DNA from: Minisyncoccota bacterium | GTDB taxonomy: Bacteria > Patescibacteriota > Minisyncoccia > Minisyncoccales > Minisyncoccaceae | Direction of reading: 5' to 3' | DNA length: 64,000 nucleotides | NCBI GenBank assembly: GCA_041663305.1 | Contig: JBAYMT010000003.1 | Coordinates: 17,949 to 81,948, forward strand | In this document: one piece after another, positions 20,650-55,967 of the stretch | Layout of the letters: every line of letters starts with the position of its first letter | How positions within the stretch are numbered: position 1 is the first letter of the stretch | The notes under the pieces: model-generated | Database searches by the model: none | What the model was told of the DNA's origin: nothing | What the model saw: the letters and a program-made list of their open reading frames with translations, nothing else | Made by a program: the position numbers and the translations under genes

Positions 20650-20652
20650 CAA

Positions 20653-20687: not shown

Positions 20688-20695
20688 AAATATTA

Positions 20696-20724
20696 TTGAC
20701 ATCAATCCAATAATGGATTATATA
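20696..20724 (+). promoter_or_regulatory. sigma70-like promoter TTGACA-N17-TATATA
   Basis: 8 nt after the heptamer array. The -10 ends 7 nt before GTG 20732. Confidence 0.5.
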
Positions 20725-20731
20725 AATTATT

Positions 20732-20869: not shown

Positions 20870-20954
20870 GTACGAGAGTACTTTTTTTCTTACTCCAATA
20901 ATTTTATTGACAAACAAGCTCTGCCATACTACAAGAAAGATAGAGGAAGTCACG

Positions 20955-21344
20955 ATGTACATTTTTACAACACTGTACCTATGGGTATTTAAAAAACGGC
21001 TTTTTGAAGAAAGTTTTGGAATCGCCTTTCCTAAAACAGAAGCGGAAAGAAACAAAATCGCTCCAGAAATCAAAAAGGCACTTACCCAAATTTGCGGAGA
21101 AATGGAATCGGCCAAAACCGAATTGGAAAAGCATGGGCTATCAACCTTTTCCAATCCCAACCCTGTTACTGCGACATGGTGCATCGCAGCAACAAAACAA
21201 AAGACGGAAAAAGAAGAATTATACGCAAAACTTTCGCGTCTTGCGCGTTGGGCAGGGTATTCGCCTTTGTTTTTCGAAAAAATCGAAAACACGGCAAAAG
21301 AAATCGGAAAGGACGGTGGCCTAACTTTTTCCACCGGAACATAG
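20955..21344 (+). CDS. hypothetical protein (129 aa)
   Basis: Start moved to the ATG preceded by AGAGGAAG; the listed start 20844 lies in the previous gene and terminator. Hairpin+T8 terminator after the stop. Confidence 0.5.
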   Translation: MYIFTTLYLWVFKKRLFEESFGIAFPKTEAERNKIAPEIKKALTQICGEMESAKTELEKHGLSTFSNPNPVTATWCIAATKQKTEKEELYAKLSRLARWAGYSPLFFEKIENTAKEIGKDGGLTFSTGT

Positions 21345-43054: not shown

Positions 43055-43059
43055 ATCTT

Positions 43060-43797
43060 TTAGATTTCAGTTGCTTTATATGTTTTAAAAATATCCAATC
43101 CAAGTATTTGAGCTCGACTGATGACGCTTGGATCAAACTTTATCTTAAATTTATTAGAAGAATAAAATTCAACACTCTCAACTCCTCCCAGCTTTTCCAA
43201 ATCTCCAGTTACTAAAAATGCATGACCAGAACAAGGAAGATCAACAGAAATATCAAATGCTTCAATTGTATTATCAAAACCTGTTTGCTTTCCATTGGAC
43301 AATTCATCGCCTGATGTGTTTTTTGGCAAGTCTTTTTTTTGTTCATTAGAAGTCTTAGAAAAAACTTCATCAGGTGAAACATCATACCGTGTTTCCAGAT
43401 TTTGAATAGCTGTATTAATCGGTTTAATTCCTCCAACAATTGGCATTACATAATTAAAAAATAGGATATTTACTATTATGGTAGTTGAAAAAAGAATGAT
43501 CAAATAATTCCTTTTTGCAACAATTCCTTCCCACGATAAACTGTTAATCCTTCTTAGATAAAAGATTGCCGATATCAAAGCAAATAACAGAGATAAACCG
43601 ATCAACATTGGCATAAAATATGGCAACAATAAGAATTGTCTTAATACTTGCGTTGCAAAGGTAGCTCCGATAATAGAAAATACAACAAAAAGAATACAAA
43701 AAGAATGAGGAATTATTGCATACAATAATCCGCTCCAAAATCCATTTACATTTTTAGTTTTAACGCTGCAGCAATCTTTATTCTTTACATTTTCCAT
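43060..43797 (-). CDS. membrane protein with Cys/His motifs and C-terminal HMA-like (ferredoxin-fold) domain, putative metal handling
   Basis: N-terminal CCSV, IPHSFC in TM1, four TM helices. C-terminal FDISVDLPCSGHAFLVTGDLEKLGGVESVEF resembles an HMA domain with CSGH replacing CxxC. Sits between csoR and copA with 1- to 5-nt gaps. Confidence 0.5.
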   Translation of the reverse strand: MENVKNKDCCSVKTKNVNGFWSGLLYAIIPHSFCILFVVFSIIGATFATQVLRQFLLLPYFMPMLIGLSLLFALISAIFYLRRINSLSWEGIVAKRNYLIILFSTTIIVNILFFNYVMPIVGGIKPINTAIQNLETRYDVSPDEVFSKTSNEQKKDLPKNTSGDELSNGKQTGFDNTIEAFDISVDLPCSGHAFLVTGDLEKLGGVESVEFYSSNKFKIKFDPSVISRAQILGLDIFKTYKATEI

Positions 43798-43798
43798 A

Positions 43799-44068
43799 TT
43801 ATTTAGATAGTTTAGTCACTTTTAAAATTTCGGCAATCATCTCATTTTTTTTCTTTTCGTCATTTGAAGACATAGCGCTCTTAAAACAAGAACCGAGATG
43901 ATTCTCCATTATCATTTGATTGGCCGACTTTAATAACCCTATTACTGCTAAGTTCTGTTGCATAATATCAATACAGTATTCTCCGTCTTCCGTCATCTTA
44001 ATTATTTTTTCCAAAGAACTTCTAGCTTTTTTAAAATTTATCAATGATTTTTCATTTTTATTATCCAT
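43799..44068 (-). CDS. csoR: CsoR/RcnR-family metal-sensing repressor
   Basis: ARSSLEKIIKMTEDGEYCIDIMQQNLAVIGLLKSANQMIMENHLGSCF gives the C...H...C ligand pattern of the CsoR (DUF156) family. Confidence 0.8.
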   Translation of the reverse strand: MDNKNEKSLINFKKARSSLEKIIKMTEDGEYCIDIMQQNLAVIGLLKSANQMIMENHLGSCFKSAMSSNDEKKKNEMIAEILKVTKLSK

Positions 44069-44211
44069 ATATTTTAAAATTTAATGTTTTGTTATGAGCA
44101 GATATACCCCCACCATAGGTATAGGTACATAATACTGCTCTATCTTTAAGCTGTCAAGCAAATTTAAAAAGACTTGCCTTTCGGTAAGTCTGATATATTA
44201 AAAATTTTAAG

Positions 44212-45747
44212 CTATAGTGGCATAGTGCCATGCTTTTTAAGAGGCGCTCCTTCTCTTTTCATAGCCAATACCTCCAAACATTGTATTATTATTTTTCTGG
44301 TGTCTTTAGGGTCTATTATCATATCAACTTGCCCAAGCTTTGCCGCCTCAAAGGGGTCTAAGAATCTTTCCTTCATTTCTTCAATTTTTTCTTTTTCAGC
44401 TTTTGCTGGATTACTGCTTTCAGAAATTTCCTTTTTATATATTATTTTAACCGCTTGCTCAGCGCCCATAACGGCAATCTGGGCCATCGGCCAAGCTATA
44501 ACATTATCATACCCCAATCCCCTTGAAGCCAAGGCAATATAGGCTCCTCCAAAAGCTTTTCGCAAAATAATACTTATCTTAGGCACTGTCGCCTCGCTAT
44601 AGGCATACAATATCTTTGCCCCATGTCTTATTATCCCTTGGTGTTCCTGATTTGTTCCTGGCAGATATCCGGGAGTATCAACCAAATTTACCAGCGGGAT
44701 ATTAAAGGCATCGCAAAATCTTACAAATCTTGCAATCTTGTCCGAGGCATCAATATCCAAGACTCCAGCCATATACTTTACCTGATTAGCAACTACACCA
44801 ACAGTATTTCCGTTTATCTTTGCAAATCCAACAATAACGTTCAATGCAAAAGCTTTATGCACTTCAAAAAACGAATCATTGTCAAAAACCTTCCCTATCA
44901 CAAGTTTCATATCATATCCTTTTTCATTTTCTTCCGGTATCAATTCTAAAATATCATCAAGATACTCGTCCTCACCCTCGACTTCAATAAAATATTCTTC
45001 ACTATTATTCTGTGGAAGATAATCAAGAAAATTTTTAACGTCCTCGAAACATTCTTTTTCTGTTCTAGAAATAAAATGCGCGCATCCGCTTTTGGCCGTG
45101 TGTATATTTGCCCCACCAAGATCATCAAAACTCACATCTTCCCCCGTCACGCTTTTTATTATATCAGGACCAGTTATATACATCTGCGAAATCCCTTCAA
45201 CCATAAAAATAAAATCTGAAAGACCGGGCGCATAGCAAGCGCCACCGGCTGAAGGACCGACCATTATGCTTATTTGCGGAATGATTCCCGAAGATTTCAC
45301 CATTGCTCTAAAGATTTCAGCATACCCGTCTAAGCTGGTAACACCTTCTTGTATCCTTGCTCCTCCTGAATCTATTATTGAAATAACAGGACATCCTATC
45401 TTCTGGGCAAGCTCAATAATCTTTACTACTTTTTTCCCGTGCATTTCCCCTAAAGTTCCGCCACTGCGTGAAAAATCCTGGCTATACAAACAGACTTGGC
45501 GTCCATTTATCTTTGCAAAACCGCTAATAACACAATCTCCGGAATATCTTTTTTTATCCAAGCCAAAATCATTGAATCGCGTTTCAACAAAAGGATCAAG
45601 CTCTACAAAAGAATTTTTATCTACCAATAATTCTATTCTTTCTCTGGCATCAAGCTTTCCTTTTTCATGCTGTTTTCGGACAAATTCTTCGTTTATTTTT
45701 TCCAAGCTTTTCAGATTTAATTTTTTGATTTGTTTTTCAAATTTCAT
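44212..45747 (-). CDS. acyl-CoA carboxylase carboxyltransferase subunit (PccB / 12S type)
   Basis: GKLDARERIELL, FGLDKKRYSGDCVISG, GGTLGEMHG, IIDSGGARIQEG. Full fused beta-alpha CT domain. Confidence 0.9.
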   Translation of the reverse strand: MKFEKQIKKLNLKSLEKINEEFVRKQHEKGKLDARERIELLVDKNSFVELDPFVETRFNDFGLDKKRYSGDCVISGFAKINGRQVCLYSQDFSRSGGTLGEMHGKKVVKIIELAQKIGCPVISIIDSGGARIQEGVTSLDGYAEIFRAMVKSSGIIPQISIMVGPSAGGACYAPGLSDFIFMVEGISQMYITGPDIIKSVTGEDVSFDDLGGANIHTAKSGCAHFISRTEKECFEDVKNFLDYLPQNNSEEYFIEVEGEDEYLDDILELIPEENEKGYDMKLVIGKVFDNDSFFEVHKAFALNVIVGFAKINGNTVGVVANQVKYMAGVLDIDASDKIARFVRFCDAFNIPLVNLVDTPGYLPGTNQEHQGIIRHGAKILYAYSEATVPKISIILRKAFGGAYIALASRGLGYDNVIAWPMAQIAVMGAEQAVKIIYKKEISESSNPAKAEKEKIEEMKERFLDPFEAAKLGQVDMIIDPKDTRKIIIQCLEVLAMKREGAPLKKHGTMPL

Positions 45748-45753
45748 ATAAAA

Positions 45754-46287
45754 TTAAATTGTTATTTCATTAAAATAATATCTCATATTTTCAATAACTT
45801 TCTCAACAATTTTATCATTATCCACTGCAACTCCTAATTCATTTGAAACAGAAGTCGCTATTCTGGATAATTCATCGGGGAAATAGTCTATGTTCGTATC
45901 AATGCCTATCCCAATAACAGAATTTATATCATTTCCCTTAATTACGTTCTCGGTAAGTATTCCGCAAAACTTTTTCCCATTTACAAAAACATCATTCGGC
46001 AATTTTATCATCGGCTCCAAGTCAAACTCCTCTTTAATTGCGCTCGCAACAGCAAAAGCTGAAAGTAAGGTCAATATTTGCAGATCTTTGATATTTGCAG
46101 GAGGCAGAATAACTGAAAAATATAATCCCCCTTCCGGAGAAAACCAATCTTTCCCTCTGGTGCCATGTCCAGACCCCTGTTTCTTTGCAACAACCACCGT
46201 CCATGGTTCGCAACCTTGTTCAATCATTTTCCTCGCCTCCAAATTGGTAGAAGGAAGCTCTTCAAATTCAATTACTCCTTTTTTCAT
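45754..46287 (-). CDS. birA: biotin--protein ligase, catalytic core only
   Basis: KKQGSGHGTRGKDWFSPEGGLYFSV fits the GRGRxGRxWxSxxGxLYxS motif. No HTH or C-terminal domain. Confidence 0.8.
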   Translation of the reverse strand: MKKGVIEFEELPSTNLEARKMIEQGCEPWTVVVAKKQGSGHGTRGKDWFSPEGGLYFSVILPPANIKDLQILTLLSAFAVASAIKEEFDLEPMIKLPNDVFVNGKKFCGILTENVIKGNDINSVIGIGIDTNIDYFPDELSRIATSVSNELGVAVDNDKIVEKVIENMRYYFNEITI

Positions 46288-46290
46288 AAC

Positions 46291-46680
46291 CTATTCAAAA
46301 ATAACTAATATTTCGCCTTCCCTTACTGTTTTGTTGGGCCTTATCAAAACTTTCTTTATTTTTCCATCTGTTTCAGAAAATATTTCATTTTCCATTTTCA
46401 TCGCAAGCAGGGTTAAAATTTTTTGCCCCGCTTTTATGTTGTCTCCATCCTTCACATATACCTCAGAAACCTCGCCTGCAATCGCAGCCTTCAGTTCTTT
46501 TTTTAACTGTACTTTTTGCTGCTTCGCAAACTCACTGACATTTTTATTCTTCCCTGTTTCCTTTTTTACCTTATCAAAATCGAAAGACCTTTCTCCAACC
46601 TTTACTGATACTTTATCACTCCCCTTTTCAAAAATTCTGATATTATATATTTTTCCTTTTATCTTTATATCAAAATCCAT
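46291..46680 (-). CDS. accB: biotin carboxyl carrier protein
   Basis: Biotinyl domain with LLAMKMENEI (AMKM biotinylation motif). Confidence 0.85.
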   Translation of the reverse strand: MDFDIKIKGKIYNIRIFEKGSDKVSVKVGERSFDFDKVKKETGKNKNVSEFAKQQKVQLKKELKAAIAGEVSEVYVKDGDNIKAGQKILTLLAMKMENEIFSETDGKIKKVLIRPNKTVREGEILVIFE

Positions 46681-46686
46681 AATAGT

Positions 46687-48210
46687 TTAAATTCCAAATT
46701 TTAAGTAATCTTTCCAAGCCGACTTTCTTCCATTCTTTTTAAAATCTCCCTTCTTTATGTTTTTATAAATATGAAAAACCAAATTAGCCAATTCTTCCTC
46801 CTCTACTGATGATTGGTATGTTTCTGTTTTTATAAGAGGGCGGCAAGCCAATTGATTTAATATTCCAGTTTTTTCAATAAAGTTCGTATAAAAATCTCCT
46901 TTTATAAAATCCATATTCTCCAAGACTAAATCAAAAAACGGAATAGTGGTTGAAACCCCCTCAATAATAGTTTCATCAAGTGATCTTTTAAGCTTGTTGA
47001 TAGCTTCTTCCCGAGTCTTCCCCCAAACAATTACTTTGGCCAATAATGAGTCAAAGAACGGGTAAATATTCTGGCCTTCGTGCAAAAAACTATGCACAAA
47101 TACTCCTTGTCCTTGAGCGGGAATATATTTCCGTATTATTCCAGGAGCAGGTTGGAAATTTTTGAAAGGGTCTTCAGAATTAACCCTTACCTCTATTGCC
47201 CATCCGTTTAAAACAATATCCTTTTGTTTCAAAATCAGTTTTTCTCCCTGGGCAATGCGTATCTGCTGCTCAACAATATCTATTCCTGTAATTGCTTCTG
47301 TAATCGGATGCTCAACTTGTATTCGGGGATTAACTTCCATAAAATAAAAATTTTTTTCACTATCAACCAAAAACTCAACTGTTGCAGCTCCATGATATTT
47401 TACCTCTTTGCATATCTTGGTAGCCCAATTGCCCATTCTTTCCCTTATATTCTCACTTATAAAAGACGATGGAGCTTCCTCAATCAGCTTCTGAAATCTT
47501 CGCTGAATGGTGCAATCCCTTTCACCCAAATAAACAGCATTTTCACCGTCCGATAAAATTTGGAATTCGATATGTCTTGCCTCTGGCAAATACTTTTCTA
47601 AAAAGAAATCGACATCAGAAAAACCCATAGACATTTGCTTCTGTATGCTCAAGGTTGCCGCAAATAATTCGCCGCTTGTAGCCTGCCCGTCAATAACTCT
47701 TATTCCCATACCTCCTCCTCCTCTTTGGGCTTTTAATATGAATGGGGGTTTTATTTTTTTAGCAGCCTCTAAAAGTTCTTTTTTTGTCTTTATAGTAGAA
47801 TCGCTGGCAGGCAATGTGGGAATGCCTATTTTTTTTGCAATTTTTTTTGCCTCAATCTTATCCTCAAACTTTCTTAAAACATTGCTATTCGGACCAATAA
47901 AAATTATTTTACTCTTCTCGCATTCAAGTGCAAACTTAGAATTCTCTGCCAAAAAACCGTACCCAGGATGTATTGCATCAACTTTCTTCTCTTTTGCAAC
48001 TTCAATAATCCGCTTGATATCCAAATACCCCTGAGACCCATCTCTTTCTAAAAAACAATATTCGTCAGCTAGTCTTGTTTCAAGGAAATTATCTTCCATT
48101 CCTCTTTTAGGACACAAAGCAACCGTTTTAATTCCCATCTCCTTGCACGTCCTTATAATTCGCAAAGCTATCTCTCCTCTATTTGCAATTAATATTTTAC
48201 TTATCTTCAT
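46687..48210 (-). CDS. accC: biotin carboxylase
   Basis: KILIANRGEIALRIIRT, HPGYGFLAEN, GGGGMGIRV, EVNPRIQVEHPITE. Confidence 0.95.
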   Translation of the reverse strand: MKISKILIANRGEIALRIIRTCKEMGIKTVALCPKRGMEDNFLETRLADEYCFLERDGSQGYLDIKRIIEVAKEKKVDAIHPGYGFLAENSKFALECEKSKIIFIGPNSNVLRKFEDKIEAKKIAKKIGIPTLPASDSTIKTKKELLEAAKKIKPPFILKAQRGGGGMGIRVIDGQATSGELFAATLSIQKQMSMGFSDVDFFLEKYLPEARHIEFQILSDGENAVYLGERDCTIQRRFQKLIEEAPSSFISENIRERMGNWATKICKEVKYHGAATVEFLVDSEKNFYFMEVNPRIQVEHPITEAITGIDIVEQQIRIAQGEKLILKQKDIVLNGWAIEVRVNSEDPFKNFQPAPGIIRKYIPAQGQGVFVHSFLHEGQNIYPFFDSLLAKVIVWGKTREEAINKLKRSLDETIIEGVSTTIPFFDLVLENMDFIKGDFYTNFIEKTGILNQLACRPLIKTETYQSSVEEEELANLVFHIYKNIKKGDFKKNGRKSAWKDYLKFGI

Positions 48211-48859
48211 AAGACAGTTGTTTTATCGAGTCCATTAATTTATCTGTAATAACTATGCAAATTTCTTTATATTCATCACTCTCTGTATCCAAGCTTCTAG
48301 CCTTCTCAAAATAATCCTTAAAATCTAGCGCCTTTCCAATAGTAAATGTAATATTTCTTCTAATCTTCATTTTCCCTTTTGGAGGAAACAGTTCATAAGC
48401 TCCACTTATTCTAGCTGGGACTATTGGCACTCCTGTCTGTAAAAAAAGTTTCGCAACTCCCCACTTTCCCTTTTGGATTGCTCCATCCAAGCTTCGTTTG
48501 CCCTCTGGATAAATAATAAGAGAATATCCGTTCAGTAAATGTTCTTTTGCCAAATTTACAGCATTTCTTTTTGAATCTTCACTATTTCGATTAAGCCTTA
48601 TCACCCCGCCAAAAAGATACACAGCATCTCTTAAAAAGGCTAAAATGCCTCTTCCTTTATCTACTTGTCCTACGAACACAAATTTCCTTGGAAGACAAAC
48701 ATAAGCAGAAATCACTATGTCCAAATAGCTTTGGTGATTAGAAGCTAATATGAAGTTGGTTTCTGGAAGATTTTTCTTGCCCTCTATTTTTTTTATCAAT
48801 AGAATATTTACAATTGGAGCCAAAAAAATCTTGCAAAAATATGATGTAAATCTGTTCAT
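48197..48859 (-). CDS. plsC: 1-acyl-sn-glycerol-3-phosphate acyltransferase
   Basis: NHQSYLD (HX4D), IYPEGKRS. 14-nt overlap with accC. Confidence 0.85.
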   Translation of the reverse strand: MNRFTSYFCKIFLAPIVNILLIKKIEGKKNLPETNFILASNHQSYLDIVISAYVCLPRKFVFVGQVDKGRGILAFLRDAVYLFGGVIRLNRNSEDSKRNAVNLAKEHLLNGYSLIIYPEGKRSLDGAIQKGKWGVAKLFLQTGVPIVPARISGAYELFPPKGKMKIRRNITFTIGKALDFKDYFEKARSLDTESDEYKEICIVITDKLMDSIKQLSYEDK

Positions 48860-48864
48860 AATAA

Positions 48865-49806
48865 TTACTTCAAAAAATTATTCCCAGATTTCAATAATTC
48901 TTCTGCCCCAGAAATTATTTCCTCTATAACCTCGCTGCAGGTCTTGACCTCGCTTATTCCTCCCGCATCAATACCCGAAAGAATAGGTATAAGATCTATA
49001 TTTGCTGTTCCTTTATTCCCAGCAAATCTTTCCGAATTTATTTCTTCTGGGAAGGGATTTTTCTCTTCCATCTTTTTTAAATTTTCAGTAAGCTTATTTC
49101 TAATTGCCCTTATGGGGTGTCCAGTAAATCTTCCGATTACGGTTACGTCTTCATCTGTTGCGTCGATAATCGCTTTTTTATAGTTATCATGTATTGGACA
49201 TTCTTTAGTTGCCATAAATCTTGTCCCGATTTGCACCCCCTCCGCTCCCAGTAAAAAAGCTGCAGCAAAAGTTCGGGCATCATATATTCCTCCGGCAGCA
49301 ATAACGGGAATATCTTTTATAACGTTTGAAGCTTGTGGAACTAAGCAAAAAGTAGTGTTTTCGCCAATGTGCCCGCCCGACTCCAAACCTTCCACCACGA
49401 CTGCATCCATACCGCTCTGTTCCATTTTCTTAGCCAATCTTACGGTTGGCACTACTGGAATCACTTTTATGCCCGACTGCTTAAAATATGAAGCAACCGG
49501 CAATGGGTTTCCTCCTCCAGTAAAAACTACTGGCACTTTTTCGGCAATTATCGCTTTAACAAGCTCGGCAACATTAGGATTTTGCATCAAAAGGTTTACT
49601 CCAAAAGGTTTGTCAGTCAATTGTTTTGTTTTCTTGATTTCTTCAAGTAACCACGAAGGTGATGCAAAACCAGATCCTATTACTCCCAACCCTCCAGCGT
49701 TCGAAACAGCTGCAGTAAGCGAAGAATCAGAAACCCCAGCCATGCCTCCTTGAATTATCGGATATTTTATATTTAAAAGTTTTACGAGTCTATTATTTTC
49801 AAACAT
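48865..49806 (-). CDS. fabK: FabK-type (NMO/FMN) enoyl reductase
   Basis: YPIIQGGMAGVSD, KPFGVNL, ESGGHIG, IPVIAAGGI, GTRF. Collinear with streptococcal FabK as I recall it. Confidence 0.8.
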   Translation of the reverse strand: MFENNRLVKLLNIKYPIIQGGMAGVSDSSLTAAVSNAGGLGVIGSGFASPSWLLEEIKKTKQLTDKPFGVNLLMQNPNVAELVKAIIAEKVPVVFTGGGNPLPVASYFKQSGIKVIPVVPTVRLAKKMEQSGMDAVVVEGLESGGHIGENTTFCLVPQASNVIKDIPVIAAGGIYDARTFAAAFLLGAEGVQIGTRFMATKECPIHDNYKKAIIDATDEDVTVIGRFTGHPIRAIRNKLTENLKKMEEKNPFPEEINSERFAGNKGTANIDLIPILSGIDAGGISEVKTCSEVIEEIISGAEELLKSGNNFLK

Positions 49807-49810
49807 AGTT

Positions 49811-51328
49811 TTAAGTATTTTGGACTAAAGGCTCTTTGGCCAAAATTTGATTTGCCTGCTCGACCAATTCATTGATTAATTTTTTTACGCTCACGATTTC
49901 TTTTATCCTAAAAGCATTACTTCCAGCAAACACCAGACCATTTTCCATATCTCCCATTCTGGCATTTTCCAAAGCTTTCAAAATGCAATAGCTCTTATTA
50001 CAAACCGGTCCTATACACCCTTCGCACTCACTAGGATTAACCTTAGGAGCACTGCCGCTTAAAAGCTTTTCCACAAACCTATTTTTAATTGCACGTCCCG
50101 GTAATCCAACAGGCGATTTTATTATAACCAAATCTTTTTCGCTTGCAGTCAAATAAGCTTCTTTAAATTTTTTATCCGCATCGCACTCATCAGTAGCCAC
50201 AAAACGAGTAGCCATCTGAACACCTTTTGCTCCCGCGCGCAACATTTCAACTATATCTTTTCCGTCAAATATTCCACCAGCAGCAATAACAGGAATTTTT
50301 ATTGCGCCGACAGTCTCTTTGATTATATCTATTGTTTTTCTAAAAGGATGCCCCTCTGGAAATCCTAAATGTCCCCCCGCGTCACATCCTTCAATAACAA
50401 CTGCGCTAGCTCCAGCGTCTTCAGCTTTCTTTGCCACCTTGGCCGAAGATGCGATTATGAAAACCGGAACATTATATTTTTTTGCCATTTCAAAAATATC
50501 ATTTCTAAATCCTGCTCCTTGAATTACCAAATCTATTCCTTCCTCCATTGCGGCTTGGAGTAAATTTTGAAACTGCCCCACAACACCCATTATATTTATT
50601 CCGATCATTCCATCTTTTCCTGCAATCTCTCTTGCTTTCCTTATCTCGCTTTTAACCTCCTGTATGTCTTTCATTCCCGAAACCGCAATAATTCCTATCC
50701 CTCCCTCTTTTGCAACATTCCCTGCCAATTTATGTAGCGAAACTCTAACCGCCATTCCTCCCTGAATTATCGGGAATTTCGAAAAAACCTTTCCTATTTT
50801 CAAAGAAGGCAAATGATTCATCTTAACTGCGCTTTCTTCATTTTTTCCAGAGTCTCTTTCTTTTATTTCCTTTGCCTTTCCTTCCAATTCTTTCTTATCA
50901 ATTATCGCAACGCTAAACCTTACCTCACACTTCTTACTATTGTTGCAATACGCCTCGCCGATGAAATTCGCGATCTTTCCGCCATATATTCCCAGCATCC
51001 TAACCCGATACTCAATTCTGCTTCCAGGCAGTATTATTTCGTAGAAGAAAGCGCTTCTCACTTGGTATGCAAGAAGGTGGCTCTGCTTACCCTGTTCACC
51101 CAGCTTCTCGCGAAGCAATATAGTTCCAGTTTGGGCTATTCCCTCTACCACCAAAACTCCCGGCATCAAAGAAAAATCAACAAAATGACTCTTGAAATAA
51201 TCGTCATTTTCAGAAGTTTGTTTATACGCAACAATATAATTTTCTTCTAGTTTTTCCACGCAATCAACCCAAAGGAAAGAATCACCATACGGTATTAATT
51301 TTTTAACCTGTTCTTTTGTGTAAAGCAT
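49811..51328 (-). CDS. fusion: FabZ-like hotdog dehydratase + NMO/FabK-like reductase with C-terminal Cys cluster
   Basis: N-terminus LIPYGDSFLWVDCV...DDYFKSHFVDFSLMPGVLVVEGIAQTG (FabZ His/Glu motif). Then FPIIQGGMAVRVS...DAGGHLG...IPVIAAGGI...ATRF. Tail is CEGCIGPVCNKSYC. Confidence 0.8.
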   Translation of the reverse strand: MLYTKEQVKKLIPYGDSFLWVDCVEKLEENYIVAYKQTSENDDYFKSHFVDFSLMPGVLVVEGIAQTGTILLREKLGEQGKQSHLLAYQVRSAFFYEIILPGSRIEYRVRMLGIYGGKIANFIGEAYCNNSKKCEVRFSVAIIDKKELEGKAKEIKERDSGKNEESAVKMNHLPSLKIGKVFSKFPIIQGGMAVRVSLHKLAGNVAKEGGIGIIAVSGMKDIQEVKSEIRKAREIAGKDGMIGINIMGVVGQFQNLLQAAMEEGIDLVIQGAGFRNDIFEMAKKYNVPVFIIASSAKVAKKAEDAGASAVVIEGCDAGGHLGFPEGHPFRKTIDIIKETVGAIKIPVIAAGGIFDGKDIVEMLRAGAKGVQMATRFVATDECDADKKFKEAYLTASEKDLVIIKSPVGLPGRAIKNRFVEKLLSGSAPKVNPSECEGCIGPVCNKSYCILKALENARMGDMENGLVFAGSNAFRIKEIVSVKKLINELVEQANQILAKEPLVQNT

Positions 51329-51336
51329 AATGATAA

Positions 51337-52074
51337 CTATATAGATAAGCCCCCATCAACATTTATTACCGAACCAGTAATGAAGCTTGATTCATCCGAA
51401 ATTAAAAACGCAACAGTGTTTGCAACTTCCTCCGGTTTTCCGAATCTTCCCAGTGAAGTCAGCCTTTTAACAGCTATTTTCATTTCCTCTGGAATCGCTT
51501 CCGCCATTTTAGTTTCAATAAACCCTGGAGCAATAGCGTTTACTCTCACCCCCAACTTGCCCACCTCTTTCGACAAAGACTTAGTAAGCCCTATTATTCC
51601 CGCTTTGCTGGCCGCATAATTTGTTTGACCAAAATTACCCCTCTGTCCAACAATCGATGAAATGCTTACAATGCTTCCTTTATTCAAAACTATTAAAGGC
51701 AATAAAGCTTTTGTAACATTGAACACTCCTGTCAAATTTATATCAATAACGCGCTGCCATTCTTCGCTAGTCATTTTGGCTAAAGTTCTGTCTTGGGTAA
51801 TTCCAGCATTATTTACCAAAGAATCCAATTTTCCAATTTTTTCTTCAATCTGTTTTGCCATATTTTCTACCTGGTCATATTTGGAAACATCGGCAACAAA
51901 CACCTCTGCCTTTCCACCAGCGTTTTTTATTTCTTCTGCCAGCGCATCCAAATTTTCTTTTTGTCTATCTATATCATTAAGAACCACTTGCGCCCCTAAG
52001 GAAGACAATTTTAATGCTATTACCTTGCCTATTCCCTGAGATGCTCCTGTTATTAGGACTGTTTTGTTTTTCAT
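51337..52074 (-). CDS. fabG: 3-oxoacyl reductase (SDR)
   Basis: TGASQGIGK, NNAG, and the S...YAASK catalytic triad. 245 aa. Confidence 0.9.
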   Translation of the reverse strand: MKNKTVLITGASQGIGKVIALKLSSLGAQVVLNDIDRQKENLDALAEEIKNAGGKAEVFVADVSKYDQVENMAKQIEEKIGKLDSLVNNAGITQDRTLAKMTSEEWQRVIDINLTGVFNVTKALLPLIVLNKGSIVSISSIVGQRGNFGQTNYAASKAGIIGLTKSLSKEVGKLGVRVNAIAPGFIETKMAEAIPEEMKIAVKRLTSLGRFGKPEEVANTVAFLISDESSFITGSVINVDGGLSI

Positions 52075-52085
52075 TTTTTTATTTT

Positions 52086-53111
52086 TTATAATACTAAATC
52101 AACATTCCTTTGCACTTCCGAAATAGTTCTTCCTACTGTTGGAATATTCGAAATGTTAATACTTGCTAATTGTTTTGGAATATTCTTAACCATTCCCGTC
52201 GCATTAAAAACAGCATCAAGACTGCTTGCATTCCTACTTCCAAAGACTAAACTCCTGAATATTGGAAATTTATCAATTCTTTGCGGATGCATCGCTTCTC
52301 CAAGCGTAAAAACATTATTTATTTCTTTTATTATTTCGCCCAAGCATTCCTCGCCATGTAAATATTTTAAAGCCTGGTAATTTTGTTTTTCAAACAGTTT
52401 TAAAAGATTTTCAACTGAAGACGCTTTCCCGTATTTCAATTCCGCCAAGTTCAAAATGATATCATTATTCTTCAATTCCTTCGAAAGCTTTGCTTTTCCA
52501 ATGCTTTCAAACTCACCTGCAGACAGATCAAATGGAACCATTTTATGCTTCAAACAAACATCCAGCAATCCAGACTTCTGGGCCATTGCTTCTATTGGCA
52601 TGTCGTCAAAAGACTGGGTTGCAATTTTTATATTTTTTACTCCTTTTTCTTCCAAATAAGATAGTACGGCATCCAAAAATTCAAGAGAGGTGTTTTCTCT
52701 CATATAATTATGAACGGGTGCAACCAATGTTGGCAATACTAAAACCTTTGTATCTTTTTTTAATTGTAAACAAGAAAGATCAGCTATTTTTTCAATCGCA
52801 TCCAGCAGATTATAATTTACCTTCCATATTGCAACAGCGTCATAACTGCCATCTGTCTCAAGATTCAGACTATCACCCACCTTTCGGTTTTCCATAGATT
52901 TATACGCATACCTGTTCCCATGTTCGTCTTCAATCACTAAAGCATAATAAGGAACCTTTGGGTGTAAAAGGCTTGGAATTGAAACTTTTGAGCTGGCAAT
53001 AACCTTTGCTTCTTTTGCCCTGATAACTTCAAGCTCAGAAAAACAAAAGGGACAAATAGAAACAGGATGTTGCCATTTCTTTTTGCATTTTGAACATTGA
53101 TAAAAAACCAT
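52086..53111 (-). CDS. fusion: DUF35-like Zn-ribbon/OB-fold domain + DUF362-like domain
   Basis: N-terminus YQCSKCKKKWQHPVSICPFC plus an OB-like segment (AKVIASSKVSIP...YYALVIEDEHGNRY). C-terminus KVLVLPTLVAPVHNYMRENTSLEFLDAVLSYLEEKGVKNIKIA resembles DUF362. Confidence 0.6.
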   Translation of the reverse strand: MVFYQCSKCKKKWQHPVSICPFCFSELEVIRAKEAKVIASSKVSIPSLLHPKVPYYALVIEDEHGNRYAYKSMENRKVGDSLNLETDGSYDAVAIWKVNYNLLDAIEKIADLSCLQLKKDTKVLVLPTLVAPVHNYMRENTSLEFLDAVLSYLEEKGVKNIKIATQSFDDMPIEAMAQKSGLLDVCLKHKMVPFDLSAGEFESIGKAKLSKELKNNDIILNLAELKYGKASSVENLLKLFEKQNYQALKYLHGEECLGEIIKEINNVFTLGEAMHPQRIDKFPIFRSLVFGSRNASSLDAVFNATGMVKNIPKQLASINISNIPTVGRTISEVQRNVDLVL

Positions 53112-53121
53112 AAGAATAAAA

Positions 53122-54243
53122 TTAAATTTTTTTAAAAATATGAACTGTCACACTTCCTCCAGCTCCTCCAATATTATGGGTAAGTCCGATGTTATGTTTT
53201 TTGACCTGCCTATCTCCACAGTCTCCTCTAAGTTGATGGACTATCTCGTAAATCTGAGCCAAGCCTGTTACCGAAATGGGATGCCCCTTAGCCTTAAGTC
53301 CTCCCGATACATTGATCGGCATCTCACCATCCAGGTTTATTTTTCCCGATCTTATCAATTCGGCCCCCTTTCCTTCTTCTGCAAAGCCAAGATCTTCATA
53401 AGAAATTAATTCAACCGAAGTAAAAGCATCATGTATTTCGGCAACATCAATATCTTTTGGAGTTATTCCTGCGTTCTCAAAAGCTTCTTTTGCCGCCATT
53501 TGAGTAGCTTTAAAATGGGTCATATCGTCTCTTCCAAAAGTAAGGATATAGTCTGTTGCAAAACCAGAACCTATTACCTCAATATCGCTTTTTTCACTTG
53601 AGAGAATAACTGCAGCCCCTCCATTAACCGATAGCGAACAATCCATTAATCTTAAGGGAGAAGATACTTCTGGAGAATTTTTTATTTTTTCAAGCTCAAG
53701 AGGCTTCTTATAAAAATAAGCCTTGGGATTCAAAGCTGCATTTTGATGGTTCTTGTGTGCGATAAGAGAAAGATCATCCATCGTTGCTCCATATTTTTTC
53801 ATATACGCCTGCCACACAAGCGCATTTTGGGTTGGAAAAAGCATTCCTTCGGTTTGCTCATAAACCCTTTCAGCAGCCGAAAGTATCCAATCGGTAGCCA
53901 CCTCGCTCCTATTATCGGCAAATTTCTCAGCCGCTAAAACCATAACGTTTTTAAACCCTTGCATTTTAAGGGCTGTCCAAAAAGCTGCGCCGCCTCCGCC
54001 GCATACAGATACCAGTTCTATAATCGGAACATTTGTTTTAAAAATGTCTGATAAAAATGATACTTTGTGTGTTTGATGCTCCCCTCCGGCAGCACTTGAA
54101 ATACTTGTGAAAACTATTGCGTCAATATCCGACATGGACATTTTTGCATCCTGCAATGCTTCAATTGCAGCACTATAAGCAAAATCCCACCAACTGCGGG
54201 TAGAATAGTCAAATTTCGTCATTCCAACTCCTTTTATATACAT
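53122..54243 (-). CDS. thiolase-fold protein, archaeal/SCP-x type
   Basis: VSVCGGGGAAF (nucleophile Cys), EIHDAFT, GHPISVTG, NIGGAGGS. About 370 aa and lacks the second catalytic Cys region of biosynthetic thiolase II. Confidence 0.8.
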   Translation of the reverse strand: MYIKGVGMTKFDYSTRSWWDFAYSAAIEALQDAKMSMSDIDAIVFTSISSAAGGEHQTHKVSFLSDIFKTNVPIIELVSVCGGGGAAFWTALKMQGFKNVMVLAAEKFADNRSEVATDWILSAAERVYEQTEGMLFPTQNALVWQAYMKKYGATMDDLSLIAHKNHQNAALNPKAYFYKKPLELEKIKNSPEVSSPLRLMDCSLSVNGGAAVILSSEKSDIEVIGSGFATDYILTFGRDDMTHFKATQMAAKEAFENAGITPKDIDVAEIHDAFTSVELISYEDLGFAEEGKGAELIRSGKINLDGEMPINVSGGLKAKGHPISVTGLAQIYEIVHQLRGDCGDRQVKKHNIGLTHNIGGAGGSVTVHIFKKI

Positions 54244-54350: not shown

Positions 54351-55967
54351 TTAATCTAACCCATCGGTATTGCCTATTTTTTTGAATTCCTCGTCAGTAA
54401 GAGTAAAAATTTCCTTGACCAAACTATTATCTTGAGGTCCGACAAAATATCCGCATGAATAGCTTATTTCTTCCAAATCACCCAATGTTTGTCCTCCTCC
54501 CCCAAGACATCCTTTTGGGCAAGCCATTACCTCTAAATAATCATATGCTCCTATGTCTTTTTTTAGATCATTAACGATTTTTTTAGCCCTGCCCAGTCCA
54601 TACACTATTCCCACCCTGATCTTTCTTCCATTTGATATGATTTCCGTTTCCAATCCATTTTCTATTCCGCTTATTTTTTTAAATTCTATTCCCCCCGCCT
54701 CGCTGCCCATTGTCTTTTCGTAAAAAAGCTTTATCCCCATTCGCACAATATCCTCATTGCTGTTGTATGGATTAATACTTTTGATAAATACATTTTTAAA
54801 ATCCTGTTCATTTACCTTTTCTATATCCAAATCTTTAAGCAAGGTATACATCTCACTCAAGGTAAGAGAAAAATCTACCGACTTGTATTTGCCCCAAAAA
54901 GAACTTTTTCCTAATATTTCAAATTTTTTTGAAGTGCACGGGGCTATAGAAATAACATAAATATTTTCCCCTTTCATTCCTTTTTTTAACAAATAGTTCT
55001 TTATGCTTGCTCCGCAAATTATGTGAGGAGACTTGTTTTTACTAAGGCAATCATTCAATTCTGGATGATAAGTTTTTATATACCTCACCCAAGCTGGACA
55101 ATGCGATGTAAATAAACATTTTTTCTCATTATTTGCGGCCCTAGAAATAAATGCAGAAGATTCTTTTTCTACAATTACGTCTACCGCATAAGAAGTATCA
55201 AAGACCATATCGGCTCCTAATAATTTTAATGCGCGCGAAAAAGAGCTTATATCCCACCTATCGCCAAGCTCTTTACACAGCGACATTATCATTCCCGATG
55301 AAAATTGAAAAACCACATGATTATTTTTTTTACCCAAAATGTTTTTCACTTCAGCAATAGAACTTACTTCTTCAAATGCACCGCTCGGACAATGAGAAAG
55401 GCATTGTCCGCAAAAAACGCACTCTTTTCCCTTACAAGTTGTTATTTTAGAAAACCCATCAATCCTTTCTTTTTGTAAAAACCCAACCCCTTGATTATTG
55501 CAAACTTGAACGCAATTATTACAGTTGATACACTTGCTAGAGTCAAAGCTTATTGCCGGACCAAATTGCATTTTTGTTGAAAAAGTGCTTTTCTTTTTCT
55601 TGAGGTCAAAATCGCATTTTTTAGCGATATCAAGTATTTTACAATGATTTTTCCTGCGACAACTGATACAATTCTGGCAATGCTTAGAAAAAATCAGCTC
55701 AAAGTTTGTGTTTCTGGTTTTTTTAATCTCTTCATTTTCTGTTTCAATCTCCATTCCTTCCTCTATTTTTGTGTTGCAAGCAGTATGCAGCCCTTTTCTT
55801 CCTTTGATTGAAACTAGACATAATCGACAGCTTGATTCCGGTTTTATATCTTTGCAATAGCACAATCCGATTATGTCGATCCGGTTCCTATTCGCAACAT
55901 TCATTATTGATTCGTTTTTCTCGCCCTGCAAGACATGCCCGTTTATTTTTATTGTTAATTTATCCAT
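54351..55967 (-). CDS. [FeFe]-hydrogenase-like protein (2Fe-2S + 4Fe-4S N-domains, H-cluster domain with variant L1 motif)
   Basis: SCRLCLV (2Fe-2S), CINCNNCVQVC and CVFCGQCLSHCP (4Fe-4S). H-cluster signatures FTSHCPAW (canonical TSCCP), APCTSKKFE (MPCxxKxxE), EVMACPKGCLGGGGQ. Confidence 0.75.
   Translation of the reverse strand: MDKLTIKINGHVLQGEKNESIMNVANRNRIDIIGLCYCKDIKPESSCRLCLVSIKGRKGLHTACNTKIEEGMEIETENEEIKKTRNTNFELIFSKHCQNCISCRRKNHCKILDIAKKCDFDLKKKKSTFSTKMQFGPAISFDSSKCINCNNCVQVCNNQGVGFLQKERIDGFSKITTCKGKECVFCGQCLSHCPSGAFEEVSSIAEVKNILGKKNNHVVFQFSSGMIMSLCKELGDRWDISSFSRALKLLGADMVFDTSYAVDVIVEKESSAFISRAANNEKKCLFTSHCPAWVRYIKTYHPELNDCLSKNKSPHIICGASIKNYLLKKGMKGENIYVISIAPCTSKKFEILGKSSFWGKYKSVDFSLTLSEMYTLLKDLDIEKVNEQDFKNVFIKSINPYNSNEDIVRMGIKLFYEKTMGSEAGGIEFKKISGIENGLETEIISNGRKIRVGIVYGLGRAKKIVNDLKKDIGAYDYLEVMACPKGCLGGGGQTLGDLEEISYSCGYFVGPQDNSLVKEIFTLTDEEFKKIGNTDGLD

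Follow-up and report, generated by a model that had tools for sequence, protein, structure and literature searches.

In S. acidocaldarius, a CoA-based fatty-acid synthase that is independent of acyl carrier protein (ACP) consists of a ketothiolase/DUF35 pair, an SDR reductase, and a dehydratase, and it has been rebuilt in vitro. This archaeal synthase condenses acetyl-CoA without malonyl-CoA. DUF35 proteins scaffold thiolase-fold enzymes and an adjacent pathway enzyme, and the archaeal complex pairs DUF35 with thiolase and HMG-CoA synthase. CPR bacteria are generally host-dependent, and Minisyncoccus archaeiphilus, which has been cultured and has a closed genome, is a parasite of a methanogenic archaeon. 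Its describers listed only five proteins, namely AccC, FabK, FabG, an acyl-CoA synthetase, and a protein resembling FabA, regarded the fatty-acid pathway as incomplete, and called the role of these genes "unclear".

The DNA analyzed here, referred to as the window, is a 64-kb stretch of a 318,775-bp contig. An ORF check of the window recovered ten tightly packed minus-strand reading frames between 44212 and 54243, at exactly the coordinates given in the initial annotation, with successive intergenic distances of 10, 11, 8, 4, 5, -14 (an overlap), 6, 3, and 6 nt. With gaps of at most 11 nt, one operon brings together condensation and KR/DH/ER-type genes, a glycerolipid acyltransferase, and a carboxylase together with a biotin ligase of its own. 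The genes, in operon order, and the pair directly upstream are:

53122..54243, minus strand: gene 1, SCP2/archaeal-type thiolase, 373 aa, proposed condensing enzyme (Pfam, NCBIfam, and PDB matches; ortholog alignment)
52086..53111, minus strand: gene 2, fusion of DUF35 (residues 1 to ~100) and a DUF362/LarA-like domain (residues ~100 to 341), proposed adaptor (AF2, Foldseek, PF04015)
51337..52074, minus strand: gene 3, FabG-type SDR 3-ketoacyl reductase, 245 aa (TIGR01830)
49811..51328, minus strand: gene 4, fusion of a FabZ-type hot-dog dehydratase (residues ~6-146) and an NMO/FabK-like FMN reductase (residues ~178-498) (Pfam, NCBIfam)
48865..49806, minus strand: gene 5, FabK-type enoyl reductase, 313 aa (TIGR03151, NMO)
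48197..48859, minus strand: gene 6, PlsC-family glycerolipid acyltransferase, 220 aa (PF01553, TIGR00530, HX4D)
46687..48210, minus strand: gene 7, AccC-type biotin carboxylase, 507 aa (NF006367, three BC Pfam domains)
46291..46680, minus strand: gene 8, biotin carboxyl carrier protein (BCCP), 129 aa (PF00364, AMKM motif)
45754..46287, minus strand: gene 9, biotin-protein ligase, catalytic core, 177 aa (TIGR00121)
44212..45747, minus strand: gene 10, single-chain acyl-CoA carboxyltransferase of the PccB/12S/MmdA type, 511 aa (PF01039, TIGR01117)
55960-56940, minus strand: NuoF-like flavoprotein (Pfam)
54351-55967, minus strand: [FeFe]-hydrogenase-like protein (Pfam)

The thiolase scored 163 bits for Thiolase_C_1, 344 bits for NF004720, and 290 bits for the archaeal model AcCoTHIOL_METTL, and its closest PDB matches were 7YVY, 6ESQ, 4YZO, SCP2-thiolase, and BbsB. 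The previously quoted motifs VSVCGGGGAAF, EIHDAFT, and GHPISVTG were all present in its translation. The catalytic set consists of the nucleophile Cys81, His271 (HDAF), and His321 (GHP), invariant in an alignment of 24 CPR orthologs; the enzyme has no second catalytic cysteine at the HDCF or the CxG position. In SCP2-type thiolases, the HDCF cysteine serves as the acid/base. HDAF also occurred in 36 of the 131 nearest representatives of the wider family and in 7YVY, deposited as an acetyl-CoA acetyltransferase, so loss of the HDCF cysteine is no proof of decarboxylative chemistry. Cys202, conserved in 103 of the 131 sequences, could act as an alternative base. Slow decarboxylation of malonyl-CoA has been reported for an SCP2-thiolase-like protein. 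Among the operon's proteins, conservation is highest for the thiolase, with a median identity of 77% compared to 44% for the adaptor. We know of no thiolase that uses malonyl-CoA.

The fusion of DUF35 and DUF362 in gene 2, already proposed in the initial annotation, was recovered by two routes. The DUF362 part scored 24.2 bits, barely above the Pfam threshold of 24, and PF04015 was matched in all 38 scanned gene 2 homologs. The DUF35 part had no Pfam match in gene 2 or the scanned homologs and resembled PDB DUF35 chains only weakly by sequence (E 0.02-0.07), but the AlphaFold model (AF2; pLDDT 92.4) confirmed the N-terminal domain as DUF35 by predicted fold: all 16 top Foldseek matches in the PDB were thiolase-partner DUF35 proteins, including BbsA, ChsH2-DUF35, Trf, MucB, 6ESQ_F, 3IRB, and PhlB. 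This domain is built as a C4 zinc ribbon with invariant C6, C9, C20, and C23, together with an OB fold. A separate model of the DUF362 domain (pLDDT 94.7) gave LarA-like top matches (probability 0.98-0.99), and the LarA catalytic residues are missing from this LarA-like fold. Contrary to the initial annotation, the thiolase-DUF35 pair is not an arrangement specific to archaea: the best fold matches of the DUF35 part are bacterial (BbsA, ChsH2, PhlB, and MucB), although the closest solved relatives of the thiolase include the archaeal M. thermolithotrophicus enzyme 6ESQ. The locus differs from the archaeal complex in that DUF35 is fused to DUF362 and has no HMG-CoA synthase partner.

Pfam and NCBIfam agreed with the remaining assignments, except that BirA proved to be a biotin ligase catalytic core and not the BirA repressor: beside a match to the BPL family, TIGR00121 (147 bits) covered profile positions 2-170 of 235, and both the HTH and the C-terminal domain were lacking. 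FabG scored 297.1 bits for TIGR01830 (cutoff 297.75). The equivalents of its S138, Y151, and K155 were invariant among orthologs, whereas the positions of E. coli FabG R129 and R172, which we take to be ACP-docking residues, held Q/K and F/L/V/Y, respectively, so that the arginines are not conserved. Position 171 was always R/K, which may compensate for the loss of R172. Gene 4 comprises a FabA-like domain (residues 18-123, 56 bits) and an NMO domain (residues 178-490, 199 bits); it also matched FabZ and FabK models and contains the FabZ-type His/Glu motif SHF...PGVLVVEGIAQ. This fusion was kept in more than 120 CPR clusters and was unfused in loci L034 and L037. FabK scored 356 bits for TIGR03151 and 239 bits for NMO. 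By sequence, FabG, FabZ, and FabK are ordinary type II fatty-acid synthesis (FAS II) proteins, whose characterized relatives use acyl-ACP. PlsC (PF01553, 80 bits; TIGR00530) carries the HX4D motif as NHQSYLD, together with YPEGKRS. Many relatives have two or three tandem paralogs of this gene; where a genome has just one PF01553 gene, no candidate was found that would carry out the initial acylation of glycerol-3-phosphate. The carboxylase is composed of a biotin carboxylase (NF006367, 559 bits; three BC Pfam domains), a BCCP (PF00364, Biotin_lipoyl, 61 bits) with the biotinylation motif AMKM in its translation, and a carboxyltransferase (PF01039, Carboxyl_trans, 567 bits; TIGR01117, 700 bits).

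The reported absence of ACP, FabD, FabH, and FabF in or beside the block held in a broader search. The six reading frames of the window contained no phmmer match to the ACP of either E. coli or B. subtilis. E. coli AcpP, FabD, FabH, FabF, and PlsX gave no matches in the window and 37 related loci (647,614 bp), and a FabG query found 37 in the same sequence. Other window ORFs of at least 100 aa contained no further fatty-acid-synthesis domains. The absence of ACP and ketosynthase (KAS) genes thus applies to 64 kb of the contig and, in relatives, to the operon with ±10 kb of surrounding sequence.

The 37 related loci, all from Paceibacteria, represent at least 32 species-level genomes, and the order of genes 1 to 10 was kept in every locus long enough to show it, which argues that the operon is not a chance assembly. 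Closed genomes carrying it include NZ_AP038758.1 and OZ246399.1; the closed chromosomes measure 1.54 Mb (M. archaeiphilus) and ~655 kb, 10 kb being about 1.5% of the smaller. In the first ~600 of 1305 genes of the M. archaeiphilus gene table, the same thiolase and gene 2 are neighbors. Insertions into the operon of relatives comprised a cyclopropane-fatty-acid (CFA) synthase (292 bits), BioY, one or two additional PF01553 acyltransferases, and a gene of the DUF359 family, presumably the archaeal dephospho-CoA kinase family; flanking genes encoded a CDP-alcohol phosphatidyltransferase and a CDP-diglyceride synthase. The thiolase-adaptor-SDR order forms a conserved core, and a distant homolog of the fusion outside CPR lies in the same trio. 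That trio adjoins acyl-CoA mutases and an enoyl-CoA hydratase, all CoA-thioester enzymes, with no carboxylase within 17 kb.

We consider that the block probably represents a self-contained, ACP-free fatty-acid synthase working on CoA thioesters, joined to a phospholipid acyltransferase. It would, on balance, combine an archaeal thiolase/DUF35 condensing module with bacterial FabG, FabZ, and FabK, a malonyl-CoA supply, and PlsC. Such a CoA-thioester cycle feeding PlsC had been suggested in the initial annotation, and it gains support from the Paceibacteria synteny, the inserted CFA synthase, acyltransferase, BioY, and DUF359 genes, the closed relative reported to have no complete pathway, the non-CPR trio, and the experimentally demonstrated archaeal synthase. 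The small parasitic bacterium that carries it belongs to a group (CPR/Paceibacteria) described as incapable of lipid synthesis, yet this operon resembles a complete pathway for fatty-acid synthesis and phospholipid acylation on CoA.

In the proposed scheme, biotin carboxylase, BCCP (biotinylated by the operon's own ligase), and carboxyltransferase would convert acetyl-CoA to malonyl-CoA. The thiolase, held by the zinc-ribbon/OB domain of the fusion as in other thiolase-DUF35 complexes, would join an acyl-CoA and a C2 unit to form 3-ketoacyl-CoA. We favor malonyl-CoA, with decarboxylation, as the C2 source because the carboxylase is always co-encoded and because the Cys-His-His site lacks the acid/base cysteine; alternatively, acetyl-CoA condensation might be driven by channeling, as in the archaeal synthase. 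The initial annotation passed over this conflict between a malonyl-CoA-independent archaeal route and an operon that always encodes a carboxylase. The LarA-like half could provide a platform for docking or ligand binding and hand the intermediate to FabG. Reduction by FabG would be followed by dehydration in the FabZ domain and reduction of the enoyl thioester by the fused NMO domain and/or FabK, and the PlsC-type enzyme or enzymes would transfer the finished acyl-CoA to glycerol-3-phosphate or lysophosphatidate.

The same enzymes might instead elongate or remodel scavenged acids of short, medium, or long chain length. After uptake and activation by an acyl-CoA synthetase, such acids would pass through a few cycles before PlsC esterifies them. 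A long-chain acyl-CoA synthetase is encoded by M. archaeiphilus, host dependence is general among CPR bacteria, and sequence fixes neither the primer nor the number of cycles. We nevertheless regard scavenging as rather unlikely: the carboxylase, biotin ligase, and condensing enzyme are always in the operon, which is therefore equipped to start from acetyl-CoA, and the one cultured carrier parasitizes a methanogenic archaeon. Archaeal membranes consist of isoprenoid ethers, so such a host supplies no fatty acids. This alternative is a variant of the CoA-based synthase, not its opposite.

It is less likely still that these genes are what is left of an ordinary ACP-dependent type II synthase, its ACP, AcpS, FabD, and ketosynthase lying elsewhere in the genome or being too divergent to recognize and the thiolase/DUF35 pair having another job. 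FabG, FabZ, and FabK do score as FAS II families, and the search covered the window and the surroundings of relatives' operons; however, in bacteria fabG normally sits in one cluster with the genes for ACP, FabD, and KAS, as at the E. coli locus, and the 37 loci contained none of these. The closed relative genome was reported without a complete pathway, with five fatty-acid-related genes listed, and the thiolase and fusion are the first two operon genes in every locus, the thiolase being the most conserved. Least probable, in our view, is that the pair makes acetoacetyl-CoA for isoprenoids, for a butyrate-type reductive sink, or in acyl-CoA degradation, outside any membrane fatty-acid pathway. 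The closest well-characterized thiolase, 6ESQ, acts in the mevalonate pathway, UppS is encoded near the operon, L037 contains an inserted polyprenyl synthase, and the non-CPR trio, among mutases and a hydratase, could be catabolic. Against this, HMG-CoA synthase was absent from the window and every related locus, DUF35 is fused to DUF362 in place of the HMG-CoA synthase pairing, and the carboxylase and FabK-type reductases point to a biosynthetic direction. That PlsC, the extra acyltransferases, and the CFA synthase lie within the operon links its product to the acyl chains of phospholipids.

Upstream of the operon, UppS was identified by Pfam in the window at a distance of 2.8 kb. The NuoF-like and [FeFe]-hydrogenase-like pair is possibly an operon associate and a candidate NAD(P)H supply; in M. 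archaeiphilus (L006) it likewise precedes the operon, in L013 it lies downstream, and most other related loci lack it.

ORF translation of the window recovered all ten minus-strand ORFs reported by the initial annotation, with coordinates agreeing exactly, and every motif quoted there was seen in the translations. The ORFs occupy 44212-54243, follow one another with gaps of 10, 11, 8, 4, 5, -14, 6, 3, and 6 nt, and gave the following profile matches.

Genes of the operon in order, all on the minus strand, with profile scores
Gene 1: thiolase; Thiolase_C_1 163 bits, NF004720 344 bits, archaeal equivalog AcCoTHIOL_METTL 290 bits, classical TIGR01930 only 67 bits
Gene 2: DUF35::DUF362 fusion, 341 aa; sole Pfam match DUF362, 24.2 bits against a cutoff of 24
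Gene 3: FabG; TIGR01830 297.1 bits against a cutoff of 297.75
Gene 4, 49811-51328: FabZ/FabA-like hot-dog domain fused to an NMO/FabK-like reductase; FabA 56 bits and NMO 199 bits
Gene 5: FabK-like protein; TIGR03151 356 bits
Gene 6: acyltransferase; PF01553 80 bits, HX4D present
Gene 7: biotin carboxylase (AccC); NF006367 559 bits
Gene 8: BCCP; AMKM motif
Gene 9, 45754-46287: biotin ligase core, 177 aa; TIGR00121 147 bits
Gene 10: single-chain PccB/MmdA-type carboxyltransferase; PF01039 567 bits

The N-terminal domain of gene 4 scored 74-77 bits with FabZ models, and TIGR03151 matches at 356 and 193 bits underlie the enoyl reductase assignment. In two related Paceibacteria loci (L034 and L037), FabZ stands without an NMO domain, and in the second of these a single FabK-type reductase is seen, so that the second reductase is apparently dispensable. 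Within the FabZ::NMO fusion, the NMO domain has a cluster of cysteines, SECEGCIGPVCNKSYC, that could provide ligands for a metal or Fe-S centre. Gene 6 carries both hallmarks of the PlsC/LPAAT family, NHQSYLD (HX4D) and the PEGTR-like YPEGKRS; for genomes with a single PF01553 gene, no glycerol-3-phosphate acyltransferase was identified. The set for a biotin-dependent acyl-CoA carboxylase is complete, comprising biotin carboxylase, BCCP with its MKM lysine, carboxyltransferase, and biotin ligase. The ligase measures 172-177 aa in relatives, and that of the window lacks both the HTH of BirA and the C-terminal domain covered by the 235-position TIGR00121 model.

The operon was found to be widespread and strongly conserved. 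Named sources of homologs of gene 2, the thiolase, and FabZ::NMO were Paceibacterota, Patescibacteria, or Minisyncoccales, and when one genome per GTDB species was scanned with a single pattern, the fusion gene was located in 32 genomes, all of them Patescibacteria. Gene order from thiolase to carboxyltransferase was kept in all 37 related loci, wherever the sequence reached far enough. Median identity to the window proteins was 77% for the thiolase, which is thus the most tightly constrained protein of the operon, 70% each for FabZ::NMO, FabK, and the carboxyltransferase, 68% for FabG, 67% for AccC, 55% for the ligase, 50% for the acyltransferase, 44% for the fusion, and 43% for BCCP. In a library of 1.84 billion representatives, the CPR thiolases formed an isolated group, the next representatives being 56%, 49%, and 44% identical and all others at most 41%. 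Among the relatives compared, the nearest was the cultured Minisyncoccus archaeiphilus PMX.108 (thiolase 83% and gene 2 51% identical to the window), which carries the operon on a closed 1.54-Mb chromosome (NZ_AP038758.1, L006). The operon is also present on a MAG chromosome of 655,401 bp (OZ246399.1, L007). Two JGI contigs from different samples, L001 (656,202 bp) and L002 (656,075 bp), have the same operon; the three assemblies are nearly identical in length, differ in operon coordinates, and probably correspond to a single closed genome of about 655 kb, of which the operon takes up about 1.5%. Its retention at this genome size, together with its wide conservation in Paceibacteria, challenges the view of these bacteria as lipid-dependent.

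The components that would make this a conventional type II system were not found. As the initial annotation had stated, the block and its surroundings have no ACP-like sequence and no FabD, FabH, or FabF. Our searches found no ACP-like sequence in the six frames of the window or in the 37 related loci. Using queries from the E. coli K-12 fab cluster, phmmer returned no matches at E < 0.01 for AcpP, FabD, FabH, FabF, or PlsX across 647,614 bp (window plus 37 loci), and 37 matches for FabG in the same search. Other ORFs of at least 100 aa in the window (64 kb of a 318,775-bp contig) showed no fatty-acid-synthesis domains. Two kinds of candidate for a hidden component were rejected: a 65-aa ORF after the carboxyltransferase (L001 18862-19059; also in L002 and L003) proved to be a Cys-rich 4Fe-4S ferredoxin-like protein rather than an ACP, and none of the genes inserted in divergent operons encodes a carrier or a ketosynthase. 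FabG retains its catalytic triad, and at the positions of two E. coli arginines that we take to be ACP-docking residues it has Q/K and F/L/V/Y, with neighbouring R/K conserved; these altered positions may point away from ACP, a sequence-level observation that is suggestive only.

The closed genome of M. archaeiphilus was described as having no complete fatty-acid pathway, with only AccC, FabK, FabG, a FabA-like protein, and a long-chain acyl-CoA synthetase, whose working, according to its describers, "remains unclear". In the gene table of this organism, the thiolase (MNSC_05910) and gene 2 (MNSC_05920) lie directly upstream of those genes, and the describers did not connect them with the fatty-acid genes. 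ACP, PPTase, and KAS terms were absent from the first approximately 600 genes of the table. In the literature searched, we found no description of the cluster as a synthase in CPR (Patescibacteria, the group that includes Paceibacteria), only the remark just quoted.

A Cys-His-His site without a base is the arrangement of decarboxylating ketosynthases. In the operon thiolase, C81, H271 (in HDAF), and H321 (in GHP) were invariant in 24 orthologs, and the second catalytic cysteine is missing: the HDAF loop has an invariant Ala273, and NIGGAGG has no CxG cysteine. The HDCF-loop cysteine is given as the acid/base of SCP2-type thiolases in the passage of PMC7682436 that cites Harijan et al. (2013). 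The nearest PDB entries are 7YVY, 6ESQ, and 4YZO. Since the carboxylase, BCCP, and ligase are invariant in the operon, a carboxy-acyl-CoA must have a consumer; the operon encodes no condensing enzyme other than the thiolase, and slow decarboxylation of malonyl-CoA has been reported for an SCP2-thiolase-like protein. The value of the HDAF loop as proof of decarboxylative condensation is reduced by its frequency in the wider family: about one in three of the nearest representatives has HDAF or HDGF, and HDAF is also present in 7YVY, deposited as "acetyl-CoA acetyltransferase", on whose chemistry nothing relevant was found in the literature. Judging from its wide conservation, Cys202 might act as an alternative base. 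Decarboxylative condensation is also disfavoured by a distant non-CPR trio of thiolase, DUF35::DUF362 fusion, and SDR, which has no carboxylase nearby. Within the overall model set out below, we regard condensation of malonyl-CoA by this route as about evenly balanced.

The DUF35 label given to gene 2 held by predicted structure and failed by Pfam, which gave no above-threshold match. Neither PF12172 nor PF01796 matched the window protein; zf-ChsH2 (PF12172) appeared in 7 of 38 homologs, at E values of at least 0.059, and sequence comparison with DUF35 chains in the PDB remained sub-threshold (6HTJ, E 0.02; 6ESQ_E, E 0.07). The AlphaFold model, built with 38 homologs, had a pLDDT of 92.4 and a pTM of 0.91, and its best 16 PDB fold matches by Foldseek were all DUF35 proteins aligned over residues 1 to approximately 100 (E 9e-5 to 3.5e-3), including BbsA, ChsH2-DUF35, Trf, MucB, 3IRB, PhlB, and the DUF35 protein of the archaeal thiolase/HMG-CoA synthase complex. 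The zinc-ribbon cysteines C6, C9, C20, and C23 are invariant. At the level of the predicted structure, we therefore regard as settled that the N-terminus is a DUF35 domain, with a C4 zinc ribbon and then an OB fold, encoded beside a thiolase-fold partner.

PF04015 (DUF362) was matched by all 38 homologs of gene 2 (best E 1.9e-14). Residues 101-341 modelled alone reached a pLDDT of 94.7, and the sole credible PDB neighbours were the LarA-like nickel-pincer enzymes 9Q3K and 9EID (probability 0.99 and 0.98; TMq 0.53 and 0.49, respectively). A LarA-like fold is consistent with the common Pfam clan of DUF362 and the LarA N-domain, CL0471 (PMC11770544). The invariant residues of this domain are N140, T141, Q166, S180, F201, N221, N235, D299, G327, and R328; there is no histidine among them. 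LarA uses conserved His and Lys residues to bind its nickel-pincer cofactor and to carry out hydride transfer, and in the absence of an invariant histidine such chemistry is not expected in gene 2. We treat the DUF362 half as a putative docking or ligand-binding module.

The closest functional precedent is the ACP-independent, CoA-based fatty-acid synthase of Sulfolobus acidocaldarius, which has been reconstituted from the ketothiolase Saci_1121, the DUF35 protein Saci_1120, the NADPH-dependent SDR reductase Saci_1104, and the MaoC dehydratase Saci_1085, four parts that form a DUF35-mediated complex, plus the MDR enoyl-CoA reductase Saci_1115 (bioRxiv 10.1101/2024.07.05.601840, 2024). That route condenses acetyl-CoA; malonyl-CoA was judged an unlikely substrate, and its use was disproved for one enzyme, the beta-oxidation ketothiolase Saci_1114 (10.1101/2024.07.05.601840). 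Like this system, the operon has an SCP2/archaeal-clade thiolase with an adjacent DUF35 partner (the genes are 10 nt apart), an SDR ketoreductase next, no ACP, and, as predicted here, CoA-thioester intermediates and a DUF35 scaffold. The differences are that its DUF35 is fused to the LarA-like DUF362, its dehydratase is of the FabA/FabZ type (PF07977) rather than MaoC, its enoyl reductases are FMN enzymes of the NMO/FabK type (PF03060) rather than MDR, it adds an acyl-CoA carboxylase with biotin ligase and PlsC to what in the archaeon is an acetyl-CoA-only route, and its carrier is a bacterium with ester lipids. The logic of the operon is the same as that of the archaeal synthase at condensation and first reduction, whereas the later steps are bacterial, of the FabZ/FabK type.

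The initial annotation had regarded a thiolase paired with DUF35 as an archaeal arrangement, which proved too narrow, for DUF35 also scaffolds the bacterial BbsAB, Ltp2-ChsH2, Sal-Shy, PhlABC, and MucABC. The benzoylsuccinyl-CoA thiolase BbsAB (7PXP) and the steroid aldolases Ltp2-ChsH2 and Sal-Shy (6OK1) gave the best DUF35 structural matches, with the PhlABC and MucABC acyltransferases (5M3K, 9VBT) also among them. ChsH2 and Shy resemble gene 2 in having DUF35 fused to a second domain, in their case the enzyme of the neighbouring reaction. The bacterial systems, however, serve catabolism or secondary metabolism, their fusion partners are MaoC hydratases, and none is linked to FabG/FabZ/FabK, ACC, or PlsC. 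The Methanothermococcus thermolithotrophicus complex (6ESQ/6ET9) has a thiolase homologous over its full length (194 bits) and a DUF35 partner of the same fold; it differs in serving the mevalonate pathway rather than standing in a fatty-acid context, in its HMG-CoA synthase, which the operon does not have, and in having HDCF (6ESQ) where the operon thiolase has HDAF. CoA-dependent, ACP-independent elongation also occurs in Euglena mitochondrial synthesis and in engineered reversed beta-oxidation, and the malonyl-CoA-dependent acetoacetyl-CoA synthase NphT7 shows that malonyl-CoA can drive condensation at the CoA level. Like the pathway proposed for the operon, they elongate CoA thioesters by a thiolase-fold condensation and then reduce, dehydrate, and reduce again. 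Their enzymes are of the beta-oxidation or KAS III type; we know of no such system with a DUF35 adaptor, FabG/FabZ/FabK of the FAS II type, or a linked PlsC.

We consider it fairly probable that the operon encodes an ACP-independent, CoA-based fatty-acid synthase with a built-in malonyl-CoA supply and phospholipid acyltransfer, conserved across Paceibacteria. FabG, FabZ, the FabK-type reductases, the biotin-dependent carboxylase, and PlsC match the same family models as their counterparts in Streptococcus-type FAS II, as would be expected of a canonical FAS II whose ACP and KAS genes lie elsewhere in the genome. Judged on the window and the 37 loci, such a system is quite improbable. The operon differs from Streptococcus-type FAS II in several respects: no ACP, FabD, FabH, FabF/B, or PlsX/PlsY was found in the window and the 37 loci, the thiolase/DUF35 pair stands in the place of the ketosynthase, the carboxyltransferase is of the single-chain PccB type and not AccA/AccD, and FabZ is fused to a second reductase. 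The operon is a hybrid of the archaeal synthase and FAS II.

The distant trio was found in L039 (8130-11483, GCA_029558265.1) and L040, loci of non-Paceibacteria origin. The L039 fusion is 26% identical to gene 2 and its thiolase, with CGGGG and HDGF motifs, 44% identical to that of the window; the neighbours include two MM_CoA_mutase/B12-binding sets, MeaB, CobA, and an enoyl-CoA hydratase. The occurrence of the trio among acyl-CoA enzymes in an unrelated bacterium suggests that the three-gene core is a portable CoA-thioester module, which in turn favours CoA as carrier and speaks for a function of the fusion between thiolase and SDR. With PlsC and the carboxylase in the same conserved operon, we regard a non-lipid role of the thiolase pair as very improbable. 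That the operon enzymes serve to elongate scavenged acids seems unlikely. In the standard description, CPR cannot make fatty acids and rely on lipids from their hosts; M. archaeiphilus, the only cultured member, is a parasite of a methanogenic archaeon. To our knowledge, archaeal membranes generally contain no fatty acids to take.

A working CoA-based synthase would explain the ester-lipid supply of cells living on archaeal hosts and, if confirmed, would give the archaeal synthase, itself shown only recently, its counterpart in bacteria, with a bearing on the "lipid divide" and the evolution of condensing enzymes; a compact ACP-free pathway might also be of use in engineering. Because a culture and closed genomes exist, the synthase hypothesis is directly testable. 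Tentatively, a more specific model is possible, though we hold it doubtful, in which the synthase would need no ACP at all, the base-less Cys-His-His thiolase would condense malonyl-CoA decarboxylatively, the DUF35::LarA-like adaptor would channel the product to FabG, and CPR on archaea would thereby build ester-lipid membranes. If this were true, a decarboxylating Cys-His-His thiolase of the SCP2/archaeal type would found a new condensing-enzyme class, the adaptor would be a previously undescribed channelling element, and the view that CPR cannot make lipids would be overturned.

Genes inserted in or flanking the operon in relatives point to a context of phospholipid acyl chains, biotin, and CoA.

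Inserted genes in related Paceibacteria loci
L021 3482-4699: cyclopropane-fatty-acyl-phospholipid (CFA) synthase
L023 5719-6936: CFA synthase
L028 12007-13224: CFA synthase
L004 9452-9958, minus strand: DUF359-family gene
L033 9372-9869: DUF359-family gene
L005, L023, L028, and L032: DUF359-family gene
L037 11026-11607: BioY biotin transporter, after gene 2
L037 13336-15574: aminotransferase and polyprenyl synthase, between FabG and the unfused FabZ
L034 and L035: OCD/mu-crystallin gene

The CFA synthase (405 aa; PF02353, 292 bits) lies between FabG and FabZ::NMO in three divergent operons and implies that unsaturated phospholipid acyl chains are made. The DUF359-family gene (PF04019, 94 bits) is antisense between the thiolase and fusion genes in six loci; we take this family to be the archaeal GTP-dependent dephospho-CoA kinase, in which case the operon would contain a step of CoA biosynthesis. 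Relatives also had second and third PF01553 acyltransferases inside or beside the operon, and L004 is flanked by genes for CDP-alcohol phosphatidyltransferase and CDP-diglyceride synthase.

Other features adjoining the operon or elsewhere in the window
54351-56940, minus strand: NuoF-like flavoprotein and [FeFe]-hydrogenase-like (HydA-like) pair, upstream of the operon
L006 (M. archaeiphilus) 5992-8755: the same pair, upstream
L013 (related locus) 19081-21022: the same pair, downstream
43799-44068, minus strand: CsoR-type repressor
43060-43797, minus strand: 245-aa membrane protein with no Pfam match
40844-43054, minus strand: CopA P-type ATPase
17687-17804, plus strand: full-length LOOT RNA (RF03000, 77 bits against a gathering score of 46.4)

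Three genomes have the NuoF-like/HydA-like pair beside the operon, and most loci have no such pair; it might be a supplier of reduced pyridine nucleotide. Its hydrogenase-like protein has the motif TSHCP, where the canonical H-cluster motif is TSCCP, and may thus be of a non-standard or sensory type. Directly downstream of the operon is a copper-handling cluster (40844-44157, minus strand), with a near-consensus promoter, TTGACA-17-TATTAT, in front of its genes at 44157-44129; this promoter marks the 3' limit of the fatty-acid operon. Apart from it, the promoter and terminator scan gave counts barely above those of shuffled sequences and was uninformative for operon boundaries. The LOOT RNA was the only match in Rfam and tRNA scans of the window; it lies on this Paceibacteria contig between an ankyrin-repeat protein gene (16351-17496, plus strand), possibly a host-interaction factor, and a 347-aa ORF (17946-18989), and we know of the motif only from metagenomes with no assigned organism. 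The window further encodes a protein resembling type IV pilins that has a glycine-rich domain (21771-23210, plus strand) and a tyrosine recombinase (38720-39676, minus strand).
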